Below are positions 2,297 through 10,448 of a stretch of DNA of 10,448 nt, one piece after another. Below the pieces are notes generated by a model. That model made no database searches, was not told the DNA's origin, and saw nothing but the letters and a program-made list of their open reading frames with translations. The translations under genes and the position numbers were made by a program. The stretch lies in UHGV virus genome UHGV-0227753; one strand, given 5' to 3'. The stretch's first letter is position 1; each line of letters begins with the position of its first letter. Source of the DNA: a virus.

Positions 2297-5200
2297 TCAA
2301 CGAATACTGATGCCGGAAGCGGCTTTTTTGGTCACAATCACCGTACAGTCGGTGATATTACCTGCCCACTGATTGCCTTTATGGAAAACCTTAAACTCCA
2401 GAGTGACGCTTCCCCTGCCACTCGGCATATCAATAACCGCACTGTAGCTACCGGGAATGGCCCCTTTAGTTTCTCTGGATGCGATTAATACACCGTTTTT
2501 GCGAACTTCAAAACCATAACCCGTGTATCTTGTACCTCCCGGGTTATTACCACTTCCCGGATCGCTATACGCTATTCCGTTAAAGATAATGGGCGGAATA
2601 ATGATTTGACGGTCAAAGTTATGATCATCGCTGATGGTGACTGTAACCGTCCCGTTTGGTGTTTCCGTGTTACCCCACGTACCAGCCTGTTTCGGAAATG
2701 ATTTGGATACAGCTTTAACGAAGTCACCTCTGACCTGAGTCGCCTCCAGCATGCCCTTAATCGTACAGTTTTCATTTACCGTGACATTGTTGAGCGTCCC
2801 GGCGTTCGCATTCACACTGCCACTGATATCCGCATTTTTAGCGGTCAGCTTTCCGTCTGATGTCAGGGAAAATACCGGAGGACTGCCACCACTGGTAATG
2901 GTGGGAGCCGTCAGGCGCTTCAGGAACACGTCGTTCATGAATATCTGATTGCCCTGCGCCACAAACATCGGCGTTTCATTCCCGTTTGCCGGGTCAATAA
3001 ATGCGATACGGTTAGCGGCAACCAGAAACTGACTCAGTTTGCCTTCCTCCGTGTCCTCCATGCTGAGGCCAATACCCGCGACATAATGTTTGCCGTCTTT
3101 GGTCTGCTCAATTTTGACAGCCCACATGGCATTCCACTTATCGTTGGCGTCCTTCCACTCTTTCGAAAACTCCTCCAGTCTGCTGGCGTTATCCTCCGTC
3201 AGCTCGACTTTTTCCAGCAGCTCCTTGCCGAGATGGGATTCGGTTATCTTGCCTTTGAAAAAATCCAGGTAACCTTCCGCATCATCGCTCGCCCGACCGA
3301 CGGCCTCCACGAATGCCGATTTGCCAACGGTGTTCACACTGCGGATATAAAAGTAATAATCATGGCCCGGTTTGATATTGATACTGGCGGCTATCCAGTA
3401 CAGCGCCGTGCCAAGATAGCGGGCTGTGGTTTCAACCTGCCTGATATCCGCAATCCGCTTTTCCGAGAACCAGAACTCAAACTGTACCGTCGGATCATAA
3501 ACGGCAAGATGCGGCGTTGCGGTTATCTGAAAATAGCCCGGCGTCAGCTCAATCCGCGACGGTGCTGCCGGTGCGGCAATCCGGAACGATACCGATGCCG
3601 GATCGCCCTGCTGCCCCCAGGCATTTGCCGCCCGGACTGTCAGCCTGTAGTTTCCCAGCGCCAGTTGCGTGAAGCGGTATGTGGTTTCCGTCGTCCGGGC
3701 CGTGCTGACCAGCCGCTCACTGCCGTCATCCGCTGTTACGGTCAGACGGAGCAGGAAGCTCACGCCCTTCACCACCTTCGGCGTGTCCCAGCGCGCCAGC
3801 ACCTGATATTCCCCGCTGTCTGCGGTGACTTCGGCGGTCAGGTGCTGCACCGCTGGCGGCGTGACACCATTCACCGTGCCGCTCTGGTCGCCGTCAAAGT
3901 GCGCCCCGTTATCCACGATGGCTTCTTTTTCCGGTACATGCTGCACGGCGGTGATGGCATACGTGCCGTCATCGTTATCACGGATACTCACACAGCGGAA
4001 CAGGCGCTGACGCAACGTCGGCAACTTCAGCCCCCACACACTGTATTCTGCAACGCCGTCAGGAACCCGGTTCACTTTCACCTTAAGTCCGTCGGTGACG
4101 GACTGAACCTCCACGCTGACCGGATTACCACTTCCGTCAACCAGGCTTATCAGCGTGGTACCGGAGGATGGCAGCGTGATTTCACGGTCGAGCGTCAGCG
4201 TCCGGGTCTGGCTGTTTACCGCCAGCACGCGCCCGCCGGTGCGGATACCGGCATAGTCATCATCACAGATTTCAATGACATCGCCCGGTACATGGCGAAG
4301 CCCTTCTGCGCCCACGCTGAAGTCCACGGTCTGCGTTTCCAGCAGTTCTGTTTTAATCAGCCACAGCCCGGCGCGGTGTGCCTGCCCCCGGCTGGTACAG
4401 CCAAAAGCATCCATCTTCGTGACGTTACGACCGTAACGGGCAATGGCCTGCGTGTCCTCCACAAGCTCTGTTGCCGTCTCCCAGCCATTGTCCGGGTCAA
4501 TCCAGTTCACCTCAACGGCATTATGGCGGTCCTTCAGGGCGCTGAAGCTGTAGCGGAACGGCGCGCCATCATCCGGCATCACCACATTACTGCGGTTATA
4601 GGTCCACACCTTATCCGACGGTCGGTCCTGCACGAACGTCAGCGTCTGCCCGTTCCATACCGGCATACAGCGCATCGCCGAGCAGAAATCACTGAGCACA
4701 TCCCACGCCTTGCGCTGCGTGGTCAGCCAGGCATTACAGGTGATGCGCGGCTCCGTGCCGCCAAAGCCGTCCGGCACCGACTGGTCGCAGTACTGGCCGA
4801 TGACATACAGCGCCCATTTATCCACATCCGCCGCACCAAGACGTTTCCCCATGCCGTAGCGCGGATGGGTCAGCATATCCCACAGACACCAGGCCGGGTT
4901 GTTGCTGTATGCCGGTTTTAACGTTCCGTCCCAGATACCGCTGTATTGCCGCGTCTGCGGGTTATAGTTCGACGGCACCTGCAGAATGCGCCCGCGAAGA
5001 TGATAATTACGGCTCACCTGCTGGCTGCCGAACTGCTCCGAGTCCACCTGCACGCCGACCAGTACCGTGTTCGGGTAGCACTGTTTCACATCGATGATTT
5101 CGGTGTATGACGACCAGAGCGTTTTGTTCTGCAGCTGGTCTGTGGTGCTGTCCGGCGTCATCCTGCGCATCCGGATATTAAACGGGCGCGGCGGCAGGTT

Positions 5201-5710
5201 ATCCACCACCACCGAGGCCAGATACTGCGACGTGGTTTTGCCCTTAATGGTGATGTCTTTTTCCGTCACCCAGCCACCGTTACGTTGTATCTGAACCAGC
5301 AGGCGGACTTCCGACGGATTCCGGTCACCCTTTGAGGTGGTTTCCACCAGTGCCTGCACACCGAAGGTAAAGCGCAGACGGTCGATGTTTGCAGACGTGA
5401 TGGTCCGGGTAATCGGCGTGTCGTACTTCACTTCCGTACCCAGCACCGTCTCGGAGCCGGAGGATTCAAATCCCTCCGGCGGTGTCTGCTCCTGCTCACC
5501 TGCCCGGAAAACCACCGTGACACCGGAGATATTGGTATTCCCCTCACTGTCCAGCACTGGCGTACTGTTCAGCAGCACACTTTTTAATCCGTCCACCGGA
5601 CCTTCAATCGGCCCTTCACTGATGGCGTCTATCACGCTCAGCATCTGGGATGATTTCAGGTTGTCCTTCGCTTCGCGCGGGGTATGCCCCTTACTGCTGC
5701 CTTTACCCAT
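2297..5710 (-). CDS. J: Tail tip attachment / host specificity protein J (central tail fiber)
   Basis: 1137-aa ORF starting [54 protein letters not shown]..., collinear with and near-identical to lambda J (1132 aa as recalled) over roughly the first 1000 residues. Position after I and before lom matches lambda. The C-terminal ~100-160 residues do not match the lambda sequence I recall. Confidence 0.97.
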
Positions 5711-5770: not shown

Positions 5771-6442
5771 TCAACGACCAATCACCACAACCTGACCACC
5801 GTCCCCCTCGTCTGCCGTGCTGATCTCCTGAGAAGCCACCCGCGACCCCACGCGCATTTCACCGTACAGAACAGGCAGAACATTGCCCTGGGCAACCATG
5901 TTATCCAGTGAGGAGAAATAGGTGTTCTGCTTACCGTTATCCGTTGTCTGTGTACGGGGAGTTCTAGCTTTCGGTGCCAGCATCTGCGCCACACCACCAA
6001 GTACCATACTGGCACCGAGAGAAAACAGGATACCGGTCATACCACCGGCCCCAATGGCTGCCCCCCATGCTGCAAGGGTGGCTCCGGCAGTAAAGAATGA
6101 TCCGGCAATGGCGGTAGCCCCCAGAACAATCTGGAATACGCCCCCTGACTTGGCCCCGGCGACTCTGGGAACAATATGAATCACAGCGCCGTCAGGCAGA
6201 ACCTCATGTAACTGCGCCGTCAATCCGGACGTGCTGACGTCCCGCCCGGCAATCCGTACCTGATACCAGCCGTCGCTCAGTTTCTGACGAAACGCCGGGA
6301 GCTGTGTGGCCAGCGCCCGGATGGCTTCAGCCCCCGTTTTCACACGAAGGTCGATGCGGCGGCCAAATCGTTGTAAATCCCCGTAAAGGCAGATGCGCGC
6401 CATGCCCGGTGACGCCAGAGGGAGTGTGTGCGTCGCTGCCAT
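5771..6442 (-). CDS. I: Tail tip assembly protein I
   Basis: 223-aa ORF MAATHTLPLASPGMARICLYGDLQRFGRRIDLRVKTGAEAIRALATQL...VVVIGR; length and sequence match lambda I as recalled. Its start overlaps the 3' end of K by 103 nt in a different frame, as in lambda. Confidence 0.95.
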   Translation of the reverse strand: MAATHTLPLASPGMARICLYGDLQRFGRRIDLRVKTGAEAIRALATQLPAFRQKLSDGWYQVRIAGRDVSTSGLTAQLHEVLPDGAVIHIVPRVAGAKSGGVFQIVLGATAIAGSFFTAGATLAAWGAAIGAGGMTGILFSLGASMVLGGVAQMLAPKARTPRTQTTDNGKQNTYFSSLDNMVAQGNVLPVLYGEMRVGSRVASQEISTADEGDGGQVVVIGR

Positions 6443-7083
6443 TTGTCGGTATACCTCTCTCGTTTGCTCAGTTGTTCAGGAATATGGTGCAGCAGCTCGC
6501 CGTCACCACAGTAAATGGCGGCATGATTCGGCACCGATGAACCAAAACAGCACAGCAGCACATCGCCCGGTTGTGCTGATGACAACGGCACCTGATACAG
6601 CCCTGTGGCCTCCAGATTATCCAGATAGAGATTCTGACCGTGACGCCACCAGTCATCCCCGCGATGAAAATCCGGCATCTCAATCCCCGCCAGATGATAA
6701 GCATCCCGGAACAGCGTGTAACAGTCCGTCACCCCGTGCTCAAAGCGCCGCCCGGTAAGATGTGGCACACAGCGGAACTTGTAAATCGCCCCCCGGCAGA
6801 CCAGCCACCACGGCAAATCACTCTGCACCTGCAGCCGCCGATCGGCCTCACTCAGCCAGGGCAGACCACCGGGGTGACTGTGGACCAGCGCCACAATCTC
6901 ACCCTGCATCTCTGCCCGCAGCCAGTCCTCCGGCGACATCCGGAAATACGCCTCCGGCTCACCGGAGATATTCACGCAGGGAAAATATCTTTCCCCCTTC
7001 GGCGTTCTCACCACGAAGCCACACGACTCCGCTGGCGCACATCGCCGGGCGTGCGCCAGAATCGCTGATTCTGTCTCTGTCAT
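6340..7083 (-). CDS. K: Tail tip assembly protein K (MPN/JAB + NlpC/P60 two-domain protein); start ambiguous between 7083 and 6939
   Basis: Stop at 6340. The classical lambda-style start (MSPEDWLRAEMQGEIVALVHSHPGG..., 199 aa) is the ATG at 6939..6937 and has a GGAGG about 11 nt upstream. The frame stays open upstream, and an in-frame ATG at 7083..7081 (MTETESAILAHARRCAPAESCGFVV..., 247 aa) lies 4 nt after the L stop. The HSHPGGLPWLSEAD segment fits the JAMM H-x-H-x7-S-x2-D metalloprotease motif. Confidence 0.9.
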   Translation of the reverse strand: MTETESAILAHARRCAPAESCGFVVRTPKGERYFPCVNISGEPEAYFRMSPEDWLRAEMQGEIVALVHSHPGGLPWLSEADRRLQVQSDLPWWLVCRGAIYKFRCVPHLTGRRFEHGVTDCYTLFRDAYHLAGIEMPDFHRGDDWWRHGQNLYLDNLEATGLYQVPLSSAQPGDVLLCCFGSSVPNHAAIYCGDGELLHHIPEQLSKRERYTDKWQRRTHSLWRHRAWRASAFTGIYNDLAAASTFV

Positions 7084-7087
7084 GGGA

Positions 7088-7786
7088 TTACTGCGAAAGT
7101 TTGTTAATGGAAAGGAAGCCGCCAAAGTTGCCGACATTATTGCGAAACTTACAGCCACTCAGGCATTTACTGCATTTATCTTTCGTGATATCGGACGTCG
7201 GCTGGTCATATTCATCCGCGACAGCCGGACCGCTATAACCGCACTCATCACCGCGATAGGTCCAGGTACAGGTGTTGGCCAGCATGATGCGCCCCGGAAA
7301 AACAGCGCCATCCGTTTCCGTCGGCGTGGACAGTACAAAAGAGGCGCTCACCGCGCTCAGTTCGCTGCACTGCTCGATGCGCCAGCGGCTGATCACCTCC
7401 TGCTCCGGATCGGCATCGCTATTTCCGTTGACGAAGTTCACCGCATCCAGAAAACAGGCGTAAACCTTACGCCTGACCACCGTTCCTCCGACCAGACTCT
7501 GCAGGTCTTCCGCCATCCCGGTGACCATGCCGTGCAGATTAGAGACTTTCAGCGTTGGCCTTGCACTGGCTCCTTTGCCGTTCATCTCAAATCCACTTCC
7601 CTGAATGGGATAGGCCTGATACTGCCGCCCCTGCCAGGTGACTGGTTCACCTTTTTCGTTCTGCTCATTACAGAAGAAATAACGATCTCCGCCGACCTCT
7701 GTCAGATCGATTTCCCAGAGCACCACGCTGGCAGACTGCTCCGCACGGGTGCATTCATTCAGTGTTTCCTGTCGGATATTCTGCAT
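7088..7786 (-). CDS. L: Tail tip assembly protein L
   Basis: 232-aa ORF MQNIRQETLNECTRAEQSASVVLWEIDLTEVGGDRYFFCNEQNEKGEPVTWQGRQYQAYPIQGSGFEMNGKG...SINKLSQ; length and sequence match lambda L as recalled. Cys-rich C-terminal region. Its ATG (7786..7784) overlaps the M stop (TGATG). Confidence 0.95.
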   Translation of the reverse strand: MQNIRQETLNECTRAEQSASVVLWEIDLTEVGGDRYFFCNEQNEKGEPVTWQGRQYQAYPIQGSGFEMNGKGASARPTLKVSNLHGMVTGMAEDLQSLVGGTVVRRKVYACFLDAVNFVNGNSDADPEQEVISRWRIEQCSELSAVSASFVLSTPTETDGAVFPGRIMLANTCTWTYRGDECGYSGPAVADEYDQPTSDITKDKCSKCLSGCKFRNNVGNFGGFLSINKLSQ

Positions 7787-8115
7787 CAGTTCACCACCTG
7801 TTCAAACTCTGCGCTGAACTCAACACGCAACATACTGACCCGCGACGACCATTTTGCGCAGGTCACCTTTATCTGCCGGTAGCCATAAGGCGGCGTCCAC
7901 AGAAAGGCCTTCCAGCCCCCGTGCTCAGCCAGAAACGATTCCAGTGCCGTGGCCTCCTCGCGGGGAACAGAAAGCGTCACGCTGTACGTTTTCAGGTCAG
8001 CGTTCAGCCCGGCAGGCGCACGCTGAGAATAGCCATCACCAAAGCGCACCTTTATTACGGAAGGGGCCGAAGCCACATCCATACCGGGTTTCACTTTCCA
8101 GCGGAAGGTTTTCAT
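7786..8115 (-). CDS. M: Tail tip assembly protein M
   Basis: 109-aa ORF MKTFRWKVKPGMDVASAPSVIKVRFGDGYSQRAPAGLNADLKTYSVTLSVPREEAT...EFEQVVN, matching lambda M (109 aa) as recalled. A strong GGAGGTGG Shine-Dalgarno lies just upstream. Its start overlaps the H stop in an ATGA arrangement. Confidence 0.95.
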   Translation of the reverse strand: MKTFRWKVKPGMDVASAPSVIKVRFGDGYSQRAPAGLNADLKTYSVTLSVPREEATALESFLAEHGGWKAFLWTPPYGYRQIKVTCAKWSSRVSMLRVEFSAEFEQVVN

Positions 8116-10448
8116 CGTCCACCTCCGGAGAACAGACCACCATCACGGGACTGCTGTTGCATAAAGTCCGCTGCTGCTTTTTTCCCGAGGTCATAAACCA
8201 CCTTCAGGGCAGCCGGACCTATCTGCCCGTTCGTGCCATCGTTATTGATCTCGATGTTGTACTGCGGGGCAAACATCGCCATACCTGAACCACCAATATC
8301 CGCCACAACCCCCAGCTTACCGTCAGCACCACGACGCAGAGGCAGAATGGCTTCAGGCCCAGCTTCCCCCATCACACCTGCACCTTTTGCAAAAGCAAAA
8401 AACGTCGGACGGTTAACCACCGTGCCACTGTAGCGACTCAAATCAGCAGACTGATAAACACCACCATCAGCATTGGGCGTCACACTGGCAGTTGCTGCAC
8501 TCCCCCAGCCAAACGCCGAACCAATCCCCTTAACTGCCTGCATCATGGACATCTGAGCCATGATTTTTGCCAGATCAGAAAGGAGCGAGGCGGTAAAAGA
8601 TTTGAAGTTCAGTTTTCCGGTGGTACAGAATGTAGCCAGTGCATTACCTGCACTATTAAATGCCGCTGTAAGCATCTGCTCCGCAGTGCCTGCCGCATTA
8701 TCCGCATCTGCCGTGAAATTCTGAAACGCCCGCATGGCACCGTTTTTCCAGTTACCCTGAGCAATTTCAAGCTGTTGCCAGTAACGGCGATTCTCATTCA
8801 GTTGCCTGTTCAGGCTCTCCGTCAGCGCCTGCTCGGCCTTTCTGTAGTCATCCGTGTTATATGTCCCTTTCTGCTCACTATCCCGCCTCAACTGCTCCAG
8901 CTGTTGCTGGTATTTCTGGCGAAGGCTCAGTTGTACCTGATATCGCTGCCGCTGCTGATCACCCATACCCACCGTGGCGATATCCAGGTCATGTTGCTGA
9001 CGCTGAGCGCGCTCTTCTTCAGCCAGTTGACTGGTCAGCTGAATTGTTTTTTTCTTCAGATCGTTGAGTGCCGTCTGTTTCTGAAGCTCCTGCTGTTTTA
9101 CATCCAGCAGCGTCAGTGCCTGAATCAGTTCATCTTTACGGGCCAGCACACTCTTTTCATCTGCCGTCAGTTTTTTCCCGTCCAGGTCGCTGATGCGCTG
9201 CTGCAGAGCCAGAAGCTGTTTATGCGCTTCTGTCATCCTGTCAGTGGCAATGCCTGCTGACTGTCTGGCAGCAGCAATCTGTCCTTCCACCTGTGCCTGT
9301 TGCTGGCTGTACTGCAGCAATAACCGGGTGGCCTCATCATTACGGGTTTCGCGTGTTTTTTTCTTACCGGATGCCAGGGCTTTCTCGTAACGTTCATTTT
9401 CACGTTGTATCGCCGCATCCCTGACAGCCTGATCGGCGTACTGCATGGCATTAATACGCGCAATTTCACGCTGATGTCGTGCTGCTTCCGTTTCATTCAT
9501 CCGGTTCAGTGCAGCATTTTCAGCATTACGGCGTTTCTGTTGCTCCTGATAATTCCGCTCTGCCTGCTCTTTTGCATCCTGCAAATCCTTCTGGCGTTTT
9601 TTCTCCTGAAGCTCGTTAAGACGCTGCTGATCGTATTCAACCTGAGAAGATGATGCCGTCCAGGGGAGTCTTTTCGCCCGCGATACTTTCTCCTGCAAAG
9701 TGGCAATCTGCGCATCCAGCGAATCTTCACGACCAATATTCATGGCCGCATCCCAGAACTGCTTCCACCAGTCAGACAAGGTTTGCAGCGTACTACCCAG
9801 CGCATTGAGGTTATTATCAATATCCGCAGTACGCCGACCGGTTTCCTCTGCCAGTGCAGACATGGCTATCCGTGCCGCATCACTGGACCGCCCCTGCTCT
9901 CCAAGGATGCGTATCTGCTCAAGCTGAGTGGCAGTAAGAAAATGCAGCTCATTGTCCAGAGCCTTCGCGGCATTTACAGGATCATCCTTCAGCCGCTTAA
10001 ACTGATTTATGGTATCGCTGATCGACTGGCCAACCGATCGCTCCATCTGTGCGGCAGCTCTCGCCACCATACCGATATCGTTTCCACGAAATGCACCACT
10101 CCCCACCACCTGAGCCAGCGCACCGGCTGCAGCATGTTGCGTGATACCATTCCCGGAAATAGCACGACTGAGCGTCCACAGCTGCCCGGCAGTGACTCCG
10201 GCATAATGCCCCGTCAGCGACAGCTGGCGGTTAAATTCTTCCCCCTCCTTCTGACCGTCATACCAGGCTTTACCCAGACCATAGACGGCCGCGGTAATAC
10301 CGCCAATAACCCCGCCCAGCATCATGCCTTTCGGTGACATCAGTGTGTCTATCCATCCGGCACGGTTAGCCAGCGTTATCCCGGATCCCCTCAGCGCCCC
10401 TAAATTGCCGCGGGCCAGTTCACCTATCAGAACGCCTATCTCCTGGCG
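8112..10448 (-). CDS. H: Tail tape measure protein H, C-terminal ~778 codons; 5' end lies beyond the window end
   Basis: The frame is open from the window edge (10448) to the stop at 8112..8114; I checked 10341..10448 by hand and found no stop. The track start at 10340 is an internal Met. The C-terminus ...NNDGTNGQIGPAALKVVYDLGKKAAADFMQQQSRDGGLFSGGGR matches the lambda H C-terminus as recalled. The body is a long Q/E/R/K-rich predicted coiled-coil typical of tape-measure proteins. Position immediately upstream of M matches lambda. Confidence 0.93.
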   Translation of the reverse strand, partial: RQEIGVLIGELARGNLGALRGSGITLANRAGWIDTLMSPKGMMLGGVIGGITAAVYGLGKAWYDGQKEGEEFNRQLSLTGHYAGVTAGQLWTLSRAISGNGITQHAAAGALAQVVGSGAFRGNDIGMVARAAAQMERSVGQSISDTINQFKRLKDDPVNAAKALDNELHFLTATQLEQIRILGEQGRSSDAARIAMSALAEETGRRTADIDNNLNALGSTLQTLSDWWKQFWDAAMNIGREDSLDAQIATLQEKVSRAKRLPWTASSSQVEYDQQRLNELQEKKRQKDLQDAKEQAERNYQEQQKRRNAENAALNRMNETEAARHQREIARINAMQYADQAVRDAAIQRENERYEKALASGKKKTRETRNDEATRLLLQYSQQQAQVEGQIAAARQSAGIATDRMTEAHKQLLALQQRISDLDGKKLTADEKSVLARKDELIQALTLLDVKQQELQKQTALNDLKKKTIQLTSQLAEEERAQRQQHDLDIATVGMGDQQRQRYQVQLSLRQKYQQQLEQLRRDSEQKGTYNTDDYRKAEQALTESLNRQLNENRRYWQQLEIAQGNWKNGAMRAFQNFTADADNAAGTAEQMLTAAFNSAGNALATFCTTGKLNFKSFTASLLSDLAKIMAQMSMMQAVKGIGSAFGWGSAATASVTPNADGGVYQSADLSRYSGTVVNRPTFFAFAKGAGVMGEAGPEAILPLRRGADGKLGVVADIGGSGMAMFAPQYNIEINNDGTNGQIGPAALKVVYDLGKKAAADFMQQQSRDGGLFSGGGR

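Follow-up and report, generated by a model that had tools for sequence, protein, structure and literature searches.

To our knowledge, K is the only tail-tip gene of phage lambda without a known role. Its product, gpK, is needed for tail assembly and is absent from the virion (PMC10721106, PMC12617516). Iyer, Burroughs and Aravind described K in 2006 as a protein with a JAB and an NlpC/P60 domain, and predicted that the JAB domain cleaves the ubiquitin-like domain off the N-terminus of gpI (Iyer et al. 2006, PMC1779556). Residues 1-100 of gpI are unresolved in virion tail-tip structures (PMC11101478). In the JAMM motif, as described for AfJAMM and Csn5, a Glu positions the catalytic water, and two His and an Asp bind zinc (PMC300881).

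A complete K has also been annotated before. A 744-nt K CDS is already present in the PGAP annotation of E. coli ETEC4069 (WP_282834411.1, 'C40 family peptidase'), in phage 21 and in Lambda PV340536, and an intact lambda 247-aa K lies on at least 1,000 public contigs, under names that include 'metal-dependent protease of the PAD1/JAB1 superfamily'.

The window analyzed here is a stretch of 10,448 nucleotides from the virus genome UHGV-0227753. As judged from its open reading frames and Pfam matches, its minus strand encodes a lambdoid tail-tip operon (Table 1). The K gene of the window is placed between homologues of L (Phage_tail_L) and I (Lambda_tail_I), an order that is also found in relatives. 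At the DNA level, many E. coli prophages and lambdoid phages match the K region with 97-98.5% identity; matches were found in 269 phage records and in 4,375 of 5,426 complete E. coli genomes. The protein collection does not contain the 247-aa sequence of the window itself, but holds thousands of copies of proteins 96-97% identical to it.

Taking sequence evidence and structure models together, we propose that K very probably extends from ATG 7083 to TGA 6340 and would encode one 247-residue protein with a complete JAMM domain. Consequently, our annotation of the window gives K as 247 aa from 7083, not as 199 aa from 6939. The 247-aa K, although correct, is already known, its JAB and NlpC/P60 architecture having been in print in 2003-2006, and K is not a new biological system. 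The by-product of the analysis is a documented one-base discrepancy, peculiar to the lambda reference, which truncates the canonical lambda gpK entries.

Table 1 Features of the K region and its neighbors in the window (positions count from the first letter of the stretch)
Feature	Position	Strand	Description
Gene H	8112-10340	(-)	
Gene M	7786-8115	(-)	
Gene L, 232 aa	7088..7786	(-)	Pfam Phage_tail_L, 331 bits; putative upstream partner for coupled translation
L-K junction	7084..7090	(-)	L stop TAA 7090-7088, then 4-nt spacer TCCC, then K start
Gene K, 247 codons + TGA	6340..7083	(-)	Predicted two-domain tail-assembly peptidase: JAMM/MPN+ N-terminal, NlpC/P60 C-terminal
Upstream segment, codons 1-48	6940..7083	(-)	Helix 3-15, strands 21-27 and 30-36 of the predicted JAMM fold
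Glu19 codon GAG	7027..7029	(-)	In PAESCG; predicted general acid-base residue of the JAMM motif
GGAGG	6955-6951	(-)	11 nt 5' of ATG 6939; inside codons 43-45 (CCG GAG GCG, Pro-Glu-Ala)
Internal ATG, Met49 ('lambda-style' 199-aa start)	6937..6939	(-)	Here a plain internal codon
Codons 68-81, HSHPGGLPWLSEAD	6841..6882	(-)	Predicted Zn ligands His68, His70, Asp81; plus Ser69, Ser78
NlpC/P60 catalytic residues	6487..6723	(-)	Cys121 6723-6721, His187 6525-6523, His199 6489-6487
Gene I, 223-aa reading	5771..6442	(-)	Ubiquitin-like tail-assembly protein, predicted substrate or partner of K; Pfam Lambda_tail_I 96.7 bits, residues 14-97; overlaps K 3' end
Gene J	2297-5710	(-)	

The K frame and its two domains

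On the minus strand, ATG 7083-7081 and ATG 6939-6937 lie in the same frame, 144 nt or 48 codons apart, and lead to a common stop, TGA 6342-6340. Translation of 7083..6343 gives a product of 247 aa (about 28 kDa), while that of 6939..6343 gives 199 aa (about 22.5 kDa), beginning MSPEDW. Codons 1-48 translate as MTETESAILAHARRCAPAESCGFVVRTPKGERYFPCVNISGEPEAYFR, and the peptides MTETESAILAHAR and CAPAESCGFVVR would mark the 247-aa form.

An earlier, sequence-only reading of this DNA had pointed out that the K frame stays open for 48 codons above a lambda-style start, and that this segment holds a Glu in an AESCGFVV context about 49 residues before an H-S-H, which it proposed to be the catalytic Glu of a JAMM motif. 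The sequence and its positions proved accurate. Glu19 precedes His68 of H68-S69-H70 (6882-6874) by 49 residues, and Ser78 (6852-6850) and Asp81 (6843-6841) complete H-S-H-x7-S-x2-D with exact spacing. Glu19, together with His68, Ser69, His70, Ser78 and Asp81, makes up what the sequence predicts to be the canonical E-x(n)-H-S-H-x7-S-x2-D site, and the upstream segment would thus carry the JAMM catalytic Glu.

Profile searches bore out the further claim that the 247-aa product would be a complete MPN domain and that the 199-aa product would lack the Glu. On the 247-aa form, Prok-JAB (PF14464) scored 51.8 bits and covered profile positions 4-103 of 114. On the 199-aa form it scored 22.8 bits, under the Pfam gathering score of 25 bits, and covered positions 63-103 only, so the domain is not complete within the short form; profile positions 4-62 map onto the segment of codons 1-48. 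An NCBIfam desampylase model matched residues 3-92, in the long form only and with a score under the model cut-off, and the solved JAMM protein PDB 2KKS aligns from K residue 7 onwards (LAHARRCAPAESCGFV vs LAHARQALPNEACGLL).

An AlphaFold model of K, with the 70-sequence alignment described below as input, had a mean pLDDT of 97.2 and a pTM of 0.91, with block-mean pLDDT values of 97-98 for residues 1-48. In Foldseek, the N-terminal half of K matched PfJAMM1 (5LD9/5LDA), 2KKS, AMSH, CSN5 and Rpn11 with a probability of 1.00. Going by this model, a product starting at Met49 would begin within the JAMM fold and leave the domain incomplete. Profile, motif and modeled fold all place K among the JAMM/MPN+ proteins, as a predicted metalloprotease.

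Residues ~108 to 225 are an NlpC/P60 papain-like domain with Cys121, His187 and His199. NLPC_P60 (PF00877) scored 47.7 bits on K, against a gathering cut-off of 23 bits, and covered the entire profile (1-105 of 105). Each of the three residues is kept in 69 of the 70 homologues, and the C-terminal half of the model gave Foldseek matches to MepS/Spr and LytE.

The 199-aa form and the lambda reference

In the lambda RefSeq entry NC_001416, K is annotated at 14276..14875 with 199 aa, and translation upstream of this start runs into a stop. DNA alignment revealed GGAGGC-TATTTCC in the lambda reference vs GGAGGCGTATTTCC in the window, phage 21 and an E. coli prophage. J02459/NC_001416 is therefore without one G after 14266 (14266/14267), 9 nt before the ATG, which corresponds to window position 6949. 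The missing G puts the upstream segment out of frame and thus explains the 199-aa lambda annotation. In the window, we read the lambda-style start as a legacy of the lambda reference and not as a biological alternative.

Other lambda records have the G. It is present, with the 247-codon ORF intact, in Lambda PV340536, lambda imm434 OM418626, Lambda_AGU LC730321 and DE3 EU078592, and the MutaMouse λgt10 transgene has been reported with '14266 C>CG' relative to a lambda-based reference (PMC6760142). The deletion allele was found in 4 of 50,697 phage records, namely J02459, NC_001416, OR474059, which is an 'unverified' engineered lambda, and OR974322, a 'Lambda' assembled from chicken swabs. It had no exact match in IMG/VR or in the GTDB species genomes, and no match of at least 99% among 5,426 complete E. 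coli genomes. Conversely, all 240 metagenome and viral contigs retrieved with lambda-type flanks have an extra base at the 14266 site, nearly always G. None of the ten longest, chromosome-scale contigs encoding the exact 199-aa lambda K carried the deletion; many other contigs are 20-50 kb long and probably lambda control DNA. The 76-aa frameshift product is absent from a collection of 15 billion proteins, although such an ORF is rarely called by gene callers.

The deletion in J02459 has two possible origins: either a base in a G+C-rich run was missed in base calling in 1982, or the stock that was sequenced has a private mutation. If the reference is in error, K would run from 14133 to 14876 in corrected coordinates. 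We consider it unlikely that the deletion is real in the lambda cI857 Sam7 stock, in which case the reference lambda K would have a split or truncated JAMM domain with the catalytic Glu out of frame. Should it be real, it would amount to a natural experiment on K enzyme function: a phage without an in-frame JAMM N-terminus would be viable, and the Glu-bearing segment would not be strictly essential. Either JAMM activity would then be dispensable for laboratory plaques, or the 76-aa N-terminal and 199-aa C-terminal fragments would reassemble. We also considered a programmed frameshift that restores the lambda frame at the deletion, and rejected it since there is no slippery heptamer at GGAGGCTATTTCC.

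The short form has spread in two ways. One is annotation transfer, seen in the DE3 and imm434 records, which are annotated with 199 aa despite an intact ORF. The second is that gene callers choose the internal GGAGG-ATG: in three of four metagenomic loci with a 199-aa call, the upstream segment is intact and in frame. For this reason, we did not count the thousands of 199-aa cluster members in favor of a short form.

In several draft E. coli assemblies of chromosome scale, the K frame is shifted at a G5A3 run in codons 28-31 (GGAGGGGGAAAG, about 7002-6991). Homopolymer errors of long reads are the probable cause, and the shifts are a further source of 199-aa K calls. In addition, the exact lambda 199-aa K has an entry under Staphylococcus aureus, and a fragment belonging to its cluster has one under Bacillus paralicheniformis; both deposits most likely reflect contamination of assemblies with lambda control DNA.

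Our literature search found no paper stating that lambda K is 247 aa long, and none saying that the N-terminus of canonical gpK is truncated by a one-base reference discrepancy. The entries in widest use, NP_040598 and TIPK_LAMBD, start in the middle of the predicted metalloprotease domain, without the catalytic Glu, and a lambda gpK cloned, modeled or assayed from them would have a defective domain. The short K is still being passed on by annotation pipelines and gene callers, and a curation note would fix this.

Conservation of codons 1-48 and the choice of start

A search of 1.84 billion cluster representatives with K returned 2,786 matches. Among the matches listed at or below 60% identity, nearly all were 225-275 aa long and placed query residues 1-19 onto their own residues 1-20. 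The conservation alignment comprised 70 homologues with 33-58% identity, picked from full-length matches. Since it was built in this way, the coincidence of N-termini within it is partly selected, a bias that is moderated by the unbiased representative list, which also aligns from residue 19 or earlier.

Within the upstream segment, E19, inside P-x-E-x-C-G, is conserved in 69 of the 70 homologues, G22 and N38 in all of them, F47 in 69, C21 in 67 and P17 in 65. Several of the family's best-conserved positions thus belong to this segment. For the remainder of the predicted JAMM site, H68, H70 and D81 are each found in 70/70, S69 in 67/70 and S78 in 66/70.

Close relatives vary as expected of a coding sequence. 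The 744-nt ORF is intact in 81 of 83 loci (80 close IMG/VR relatives and three annotated records). The upstream 144 nt has 40 variable sites across 74 distinct sequences, and 26 of these sites are third positions of codons in the K frame (binomial P = 4e-5 against 1/3). The ratio of synonymous to nonsynonymous changes upstream (27:17) is indistinguishable from that downstream (80:54). On these patterns, we conclude that the open upstream frame is not due to chance and that the first 48 codons are, by every sequence indication, translated and under purifying selection. Profiles, distant homologues, close relatives, operon layout and the structure model are five independent lines that argue for a coding upstream segment.

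The sequence-only reading had named homologue alignments and the pattern of substitutions as ways to check its proposal, and frameshifts or stops in the upstream segment as evidence against it. Both checks agree with its proposal, and such interruptions are rare exceptions: the lambda reference, one scaffold with a TAG codon and homopolymer indels in draft long-read assemblies.

In that scaffold, a metagenome sequence of 1.2 kb, K is disrupted by a change of TAT to TAG at codon 46, and one IMG/VR prophage has a nonsense codon at K residue 60. Both copies look like occasional prophage decay. Two small PHROGs families, phrog_7305 and phrog_2635 (76 and 135 positions, respectively), match the N-terminal part of K only; phage records thus seem to contain enough split or truncated K calls for these to make up families of their own.

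As competing evidence, the sequence-only reading had listed the clear GGAGG ahead of ATG 6939, the missing Shine-Dalgarno at ATG 7083 and the position of the latter 4 nt after the L stop. All three observations stand, and the sequence has no Shine-Dalgarno-like run ahead of ATG 7083. As an argument they are weak, because the GGAGG consists of Pro-Glu-Ala codons and lies 11 nt off, a spacer that is rather long and above the optimum, because Met49 is mostly Ile in the family, and because the abutting start is conserved. The same GGAGG run is also found in relatives that carry the long-ORF annotation. In seven loci with 34-50% identity, found via contigs that encode individual distant K homologues, K starts at -4, -4, -4, -4, +1, +7 and +11 nt with respect to the L stop. 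This near-abutting layout in distant loci suggests that an abutting start poor in Shine-Dalgarno signal is the ancestral arrangement, which in turn points to translational coupling of K to L.

Two nested products could make use of both starts, as in other nested lambda gene pairs: 247 aa through coupling to L, and a 199-aa isoform without the Glu from ATG 6939. Such an isoform would fit the presence of GGAGG with an in-frame ATG where ATG 7083 has no Shine-Dalgarno, the retention of both GGAGG and ATG in close lambda-type relatives, and the frequent preference of gene callers for ATG 6939 despite an intact frame upstream of it; an internal start would also explain the viable stock, should the J02459 deletion be real. 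However, only 11 of the 70 homologues have Met at position 49. Ile occupies it in 46, and Ile, Leu or Val in 57. Relatives from E. coli and Salmonella that are 69-85% identical to K have Ile there too, among them E. coli prophage K proteins with 85% identity. Given this replacement, there is no conserved short isoform. Moreover, the GGAGG is forced by the amino acids it encodes, its spacer exceeds the optimal length, and the 199-aa form would start inside the JAMM fold with an incomplete domain. We therefore regard a second, nested product as quite improbable.

That K is a 199-aa protein only, with the upstream 144 nt an untranslated L-K spacer left open by chance, is what the lambda reference, UniProt TIPK_LAMBD and derived records (DE3, lambda imm434) would imply, and the Shine-Dalgarno argument also speaks for it. 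Yet protein-level conservation of the segment extends to homologues of 33% identity, four of the best-conserved positions in the family lie in it, and it varies as a coding sequence does. Without the segment, Pfam finds only part of the JAB domain, and a difference of one base accounts for the lambda annotation. A 148-nt untranslated gap between L and K would also be an anomaly in this operon, unique among its tightly packed genes, and L and K abut in distant relatives. We consider this explanation very improbable indeed. A start further upstream, at GTG 7158 or ATG 7137 and giving up to 272 aa, can practically be dismissed: the frame is open up to GTG 7158 (a 272-codon ORF), but the added codons overlap the 3' end of L inside its coding sequence and in another frame, homologue N-termini cluster near Met1 (-8 to +7 residues in 68 of 69), both the Pfam match and that of 2KKS start at residues 4-7, and no such start is found in the records examined (ETEC4069, phage 21, PV340536).

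Predicted role and comparison with known systems

With K read as one 247-residue protein from ATG 7083, the L-K layout suggests that ribosomes ending L would reinitiate at this ATG without a Shine-Dalgarno. We hypothesize that K is a non-virion assembly enzyme. In line with the prediction of 2006, the probable target of its JAMM domain, while the tail tip is being assembled, would be the ubiquitin-like N-terminal domain of gpI. The absence of gpK from the virion and the unresolved residues 1-100 of gpI are consistent with the predicted processing of gpI, and do not prove cleavage. In the literature searched, we found no report of a catalytic activity of gpK, for either domain, or of a substrate.

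Public records start gene I in three ways, at ATG 6442, at ATG 6403 and at a GTG that overlaps the K stop. The first, in lambda style, gives 223 aa and a 103-nt overlap with K (window 6340-6442). The second ATG (Met14) is the PGAP choice, and the GTG gives 190 aa, as in PV340536 and in metagenome gene calls. Since Lambda_tail_I matches the 223-aa form from residue 14 onwards, part of the ubiquitin-like domain would be cut off in the 190-aa call.

The NlpC/P60 half of K resembles the C40 peptidases MepS/Spr of E. coli and LytE of B. subtilis, with which it has in common the Cys-His-His triad and a structural match. In contrast to these enzymes, K has no evident signal peptide or cell-wall-binding domain, and gpK is not in virions (PMC10721106), so any cell-wall role of K is at most putative.

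In its N-terminal half, K has a predicted fold in common with the JAMM/MPN+ isopeptidases (AfJAMM, P. furiosus JAMM1, the Haloferax desampylase, Rpn11, CSN5 and AMSH), and Foldseek superimposed 5LD9/5LDA on the K model with an rmsd of 2.5-2.6 Å over 107-109 residues. The same E-x(n)-H-S-H-x7-S-x2-D motif is found in both, with a conserved Pro and Cys near the Glu, and both are linked in the genome to a ubiquitin-like protein, which for K is gene I. Unlike these isopeptidases, K is a predicted enzyme, is fused to an NlpC/P60 domain, and lies in a phage tail operon without E1/E2 partners.

The lambda reference gpK (NP_040598 / AAA96551 / UniProt TIPK_LAMBD, 199 aa) is the same gene in the same position and is ~95% identical to residues 49-247 of the window K, but lacks residues 1-48. 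The closest match is the full-length lambdoid TAPK of ETEC4069, phage 21 and PV340536. Its DNA is 97-98.5% identical to the window, with the same 744-nt ORF, a start 4-5 nt after the L stop, the gene order M-L-K-I-J and, as in the window, JAB and NlpC/P60 domains. Between these records and the K of the window there is no difference of substance.
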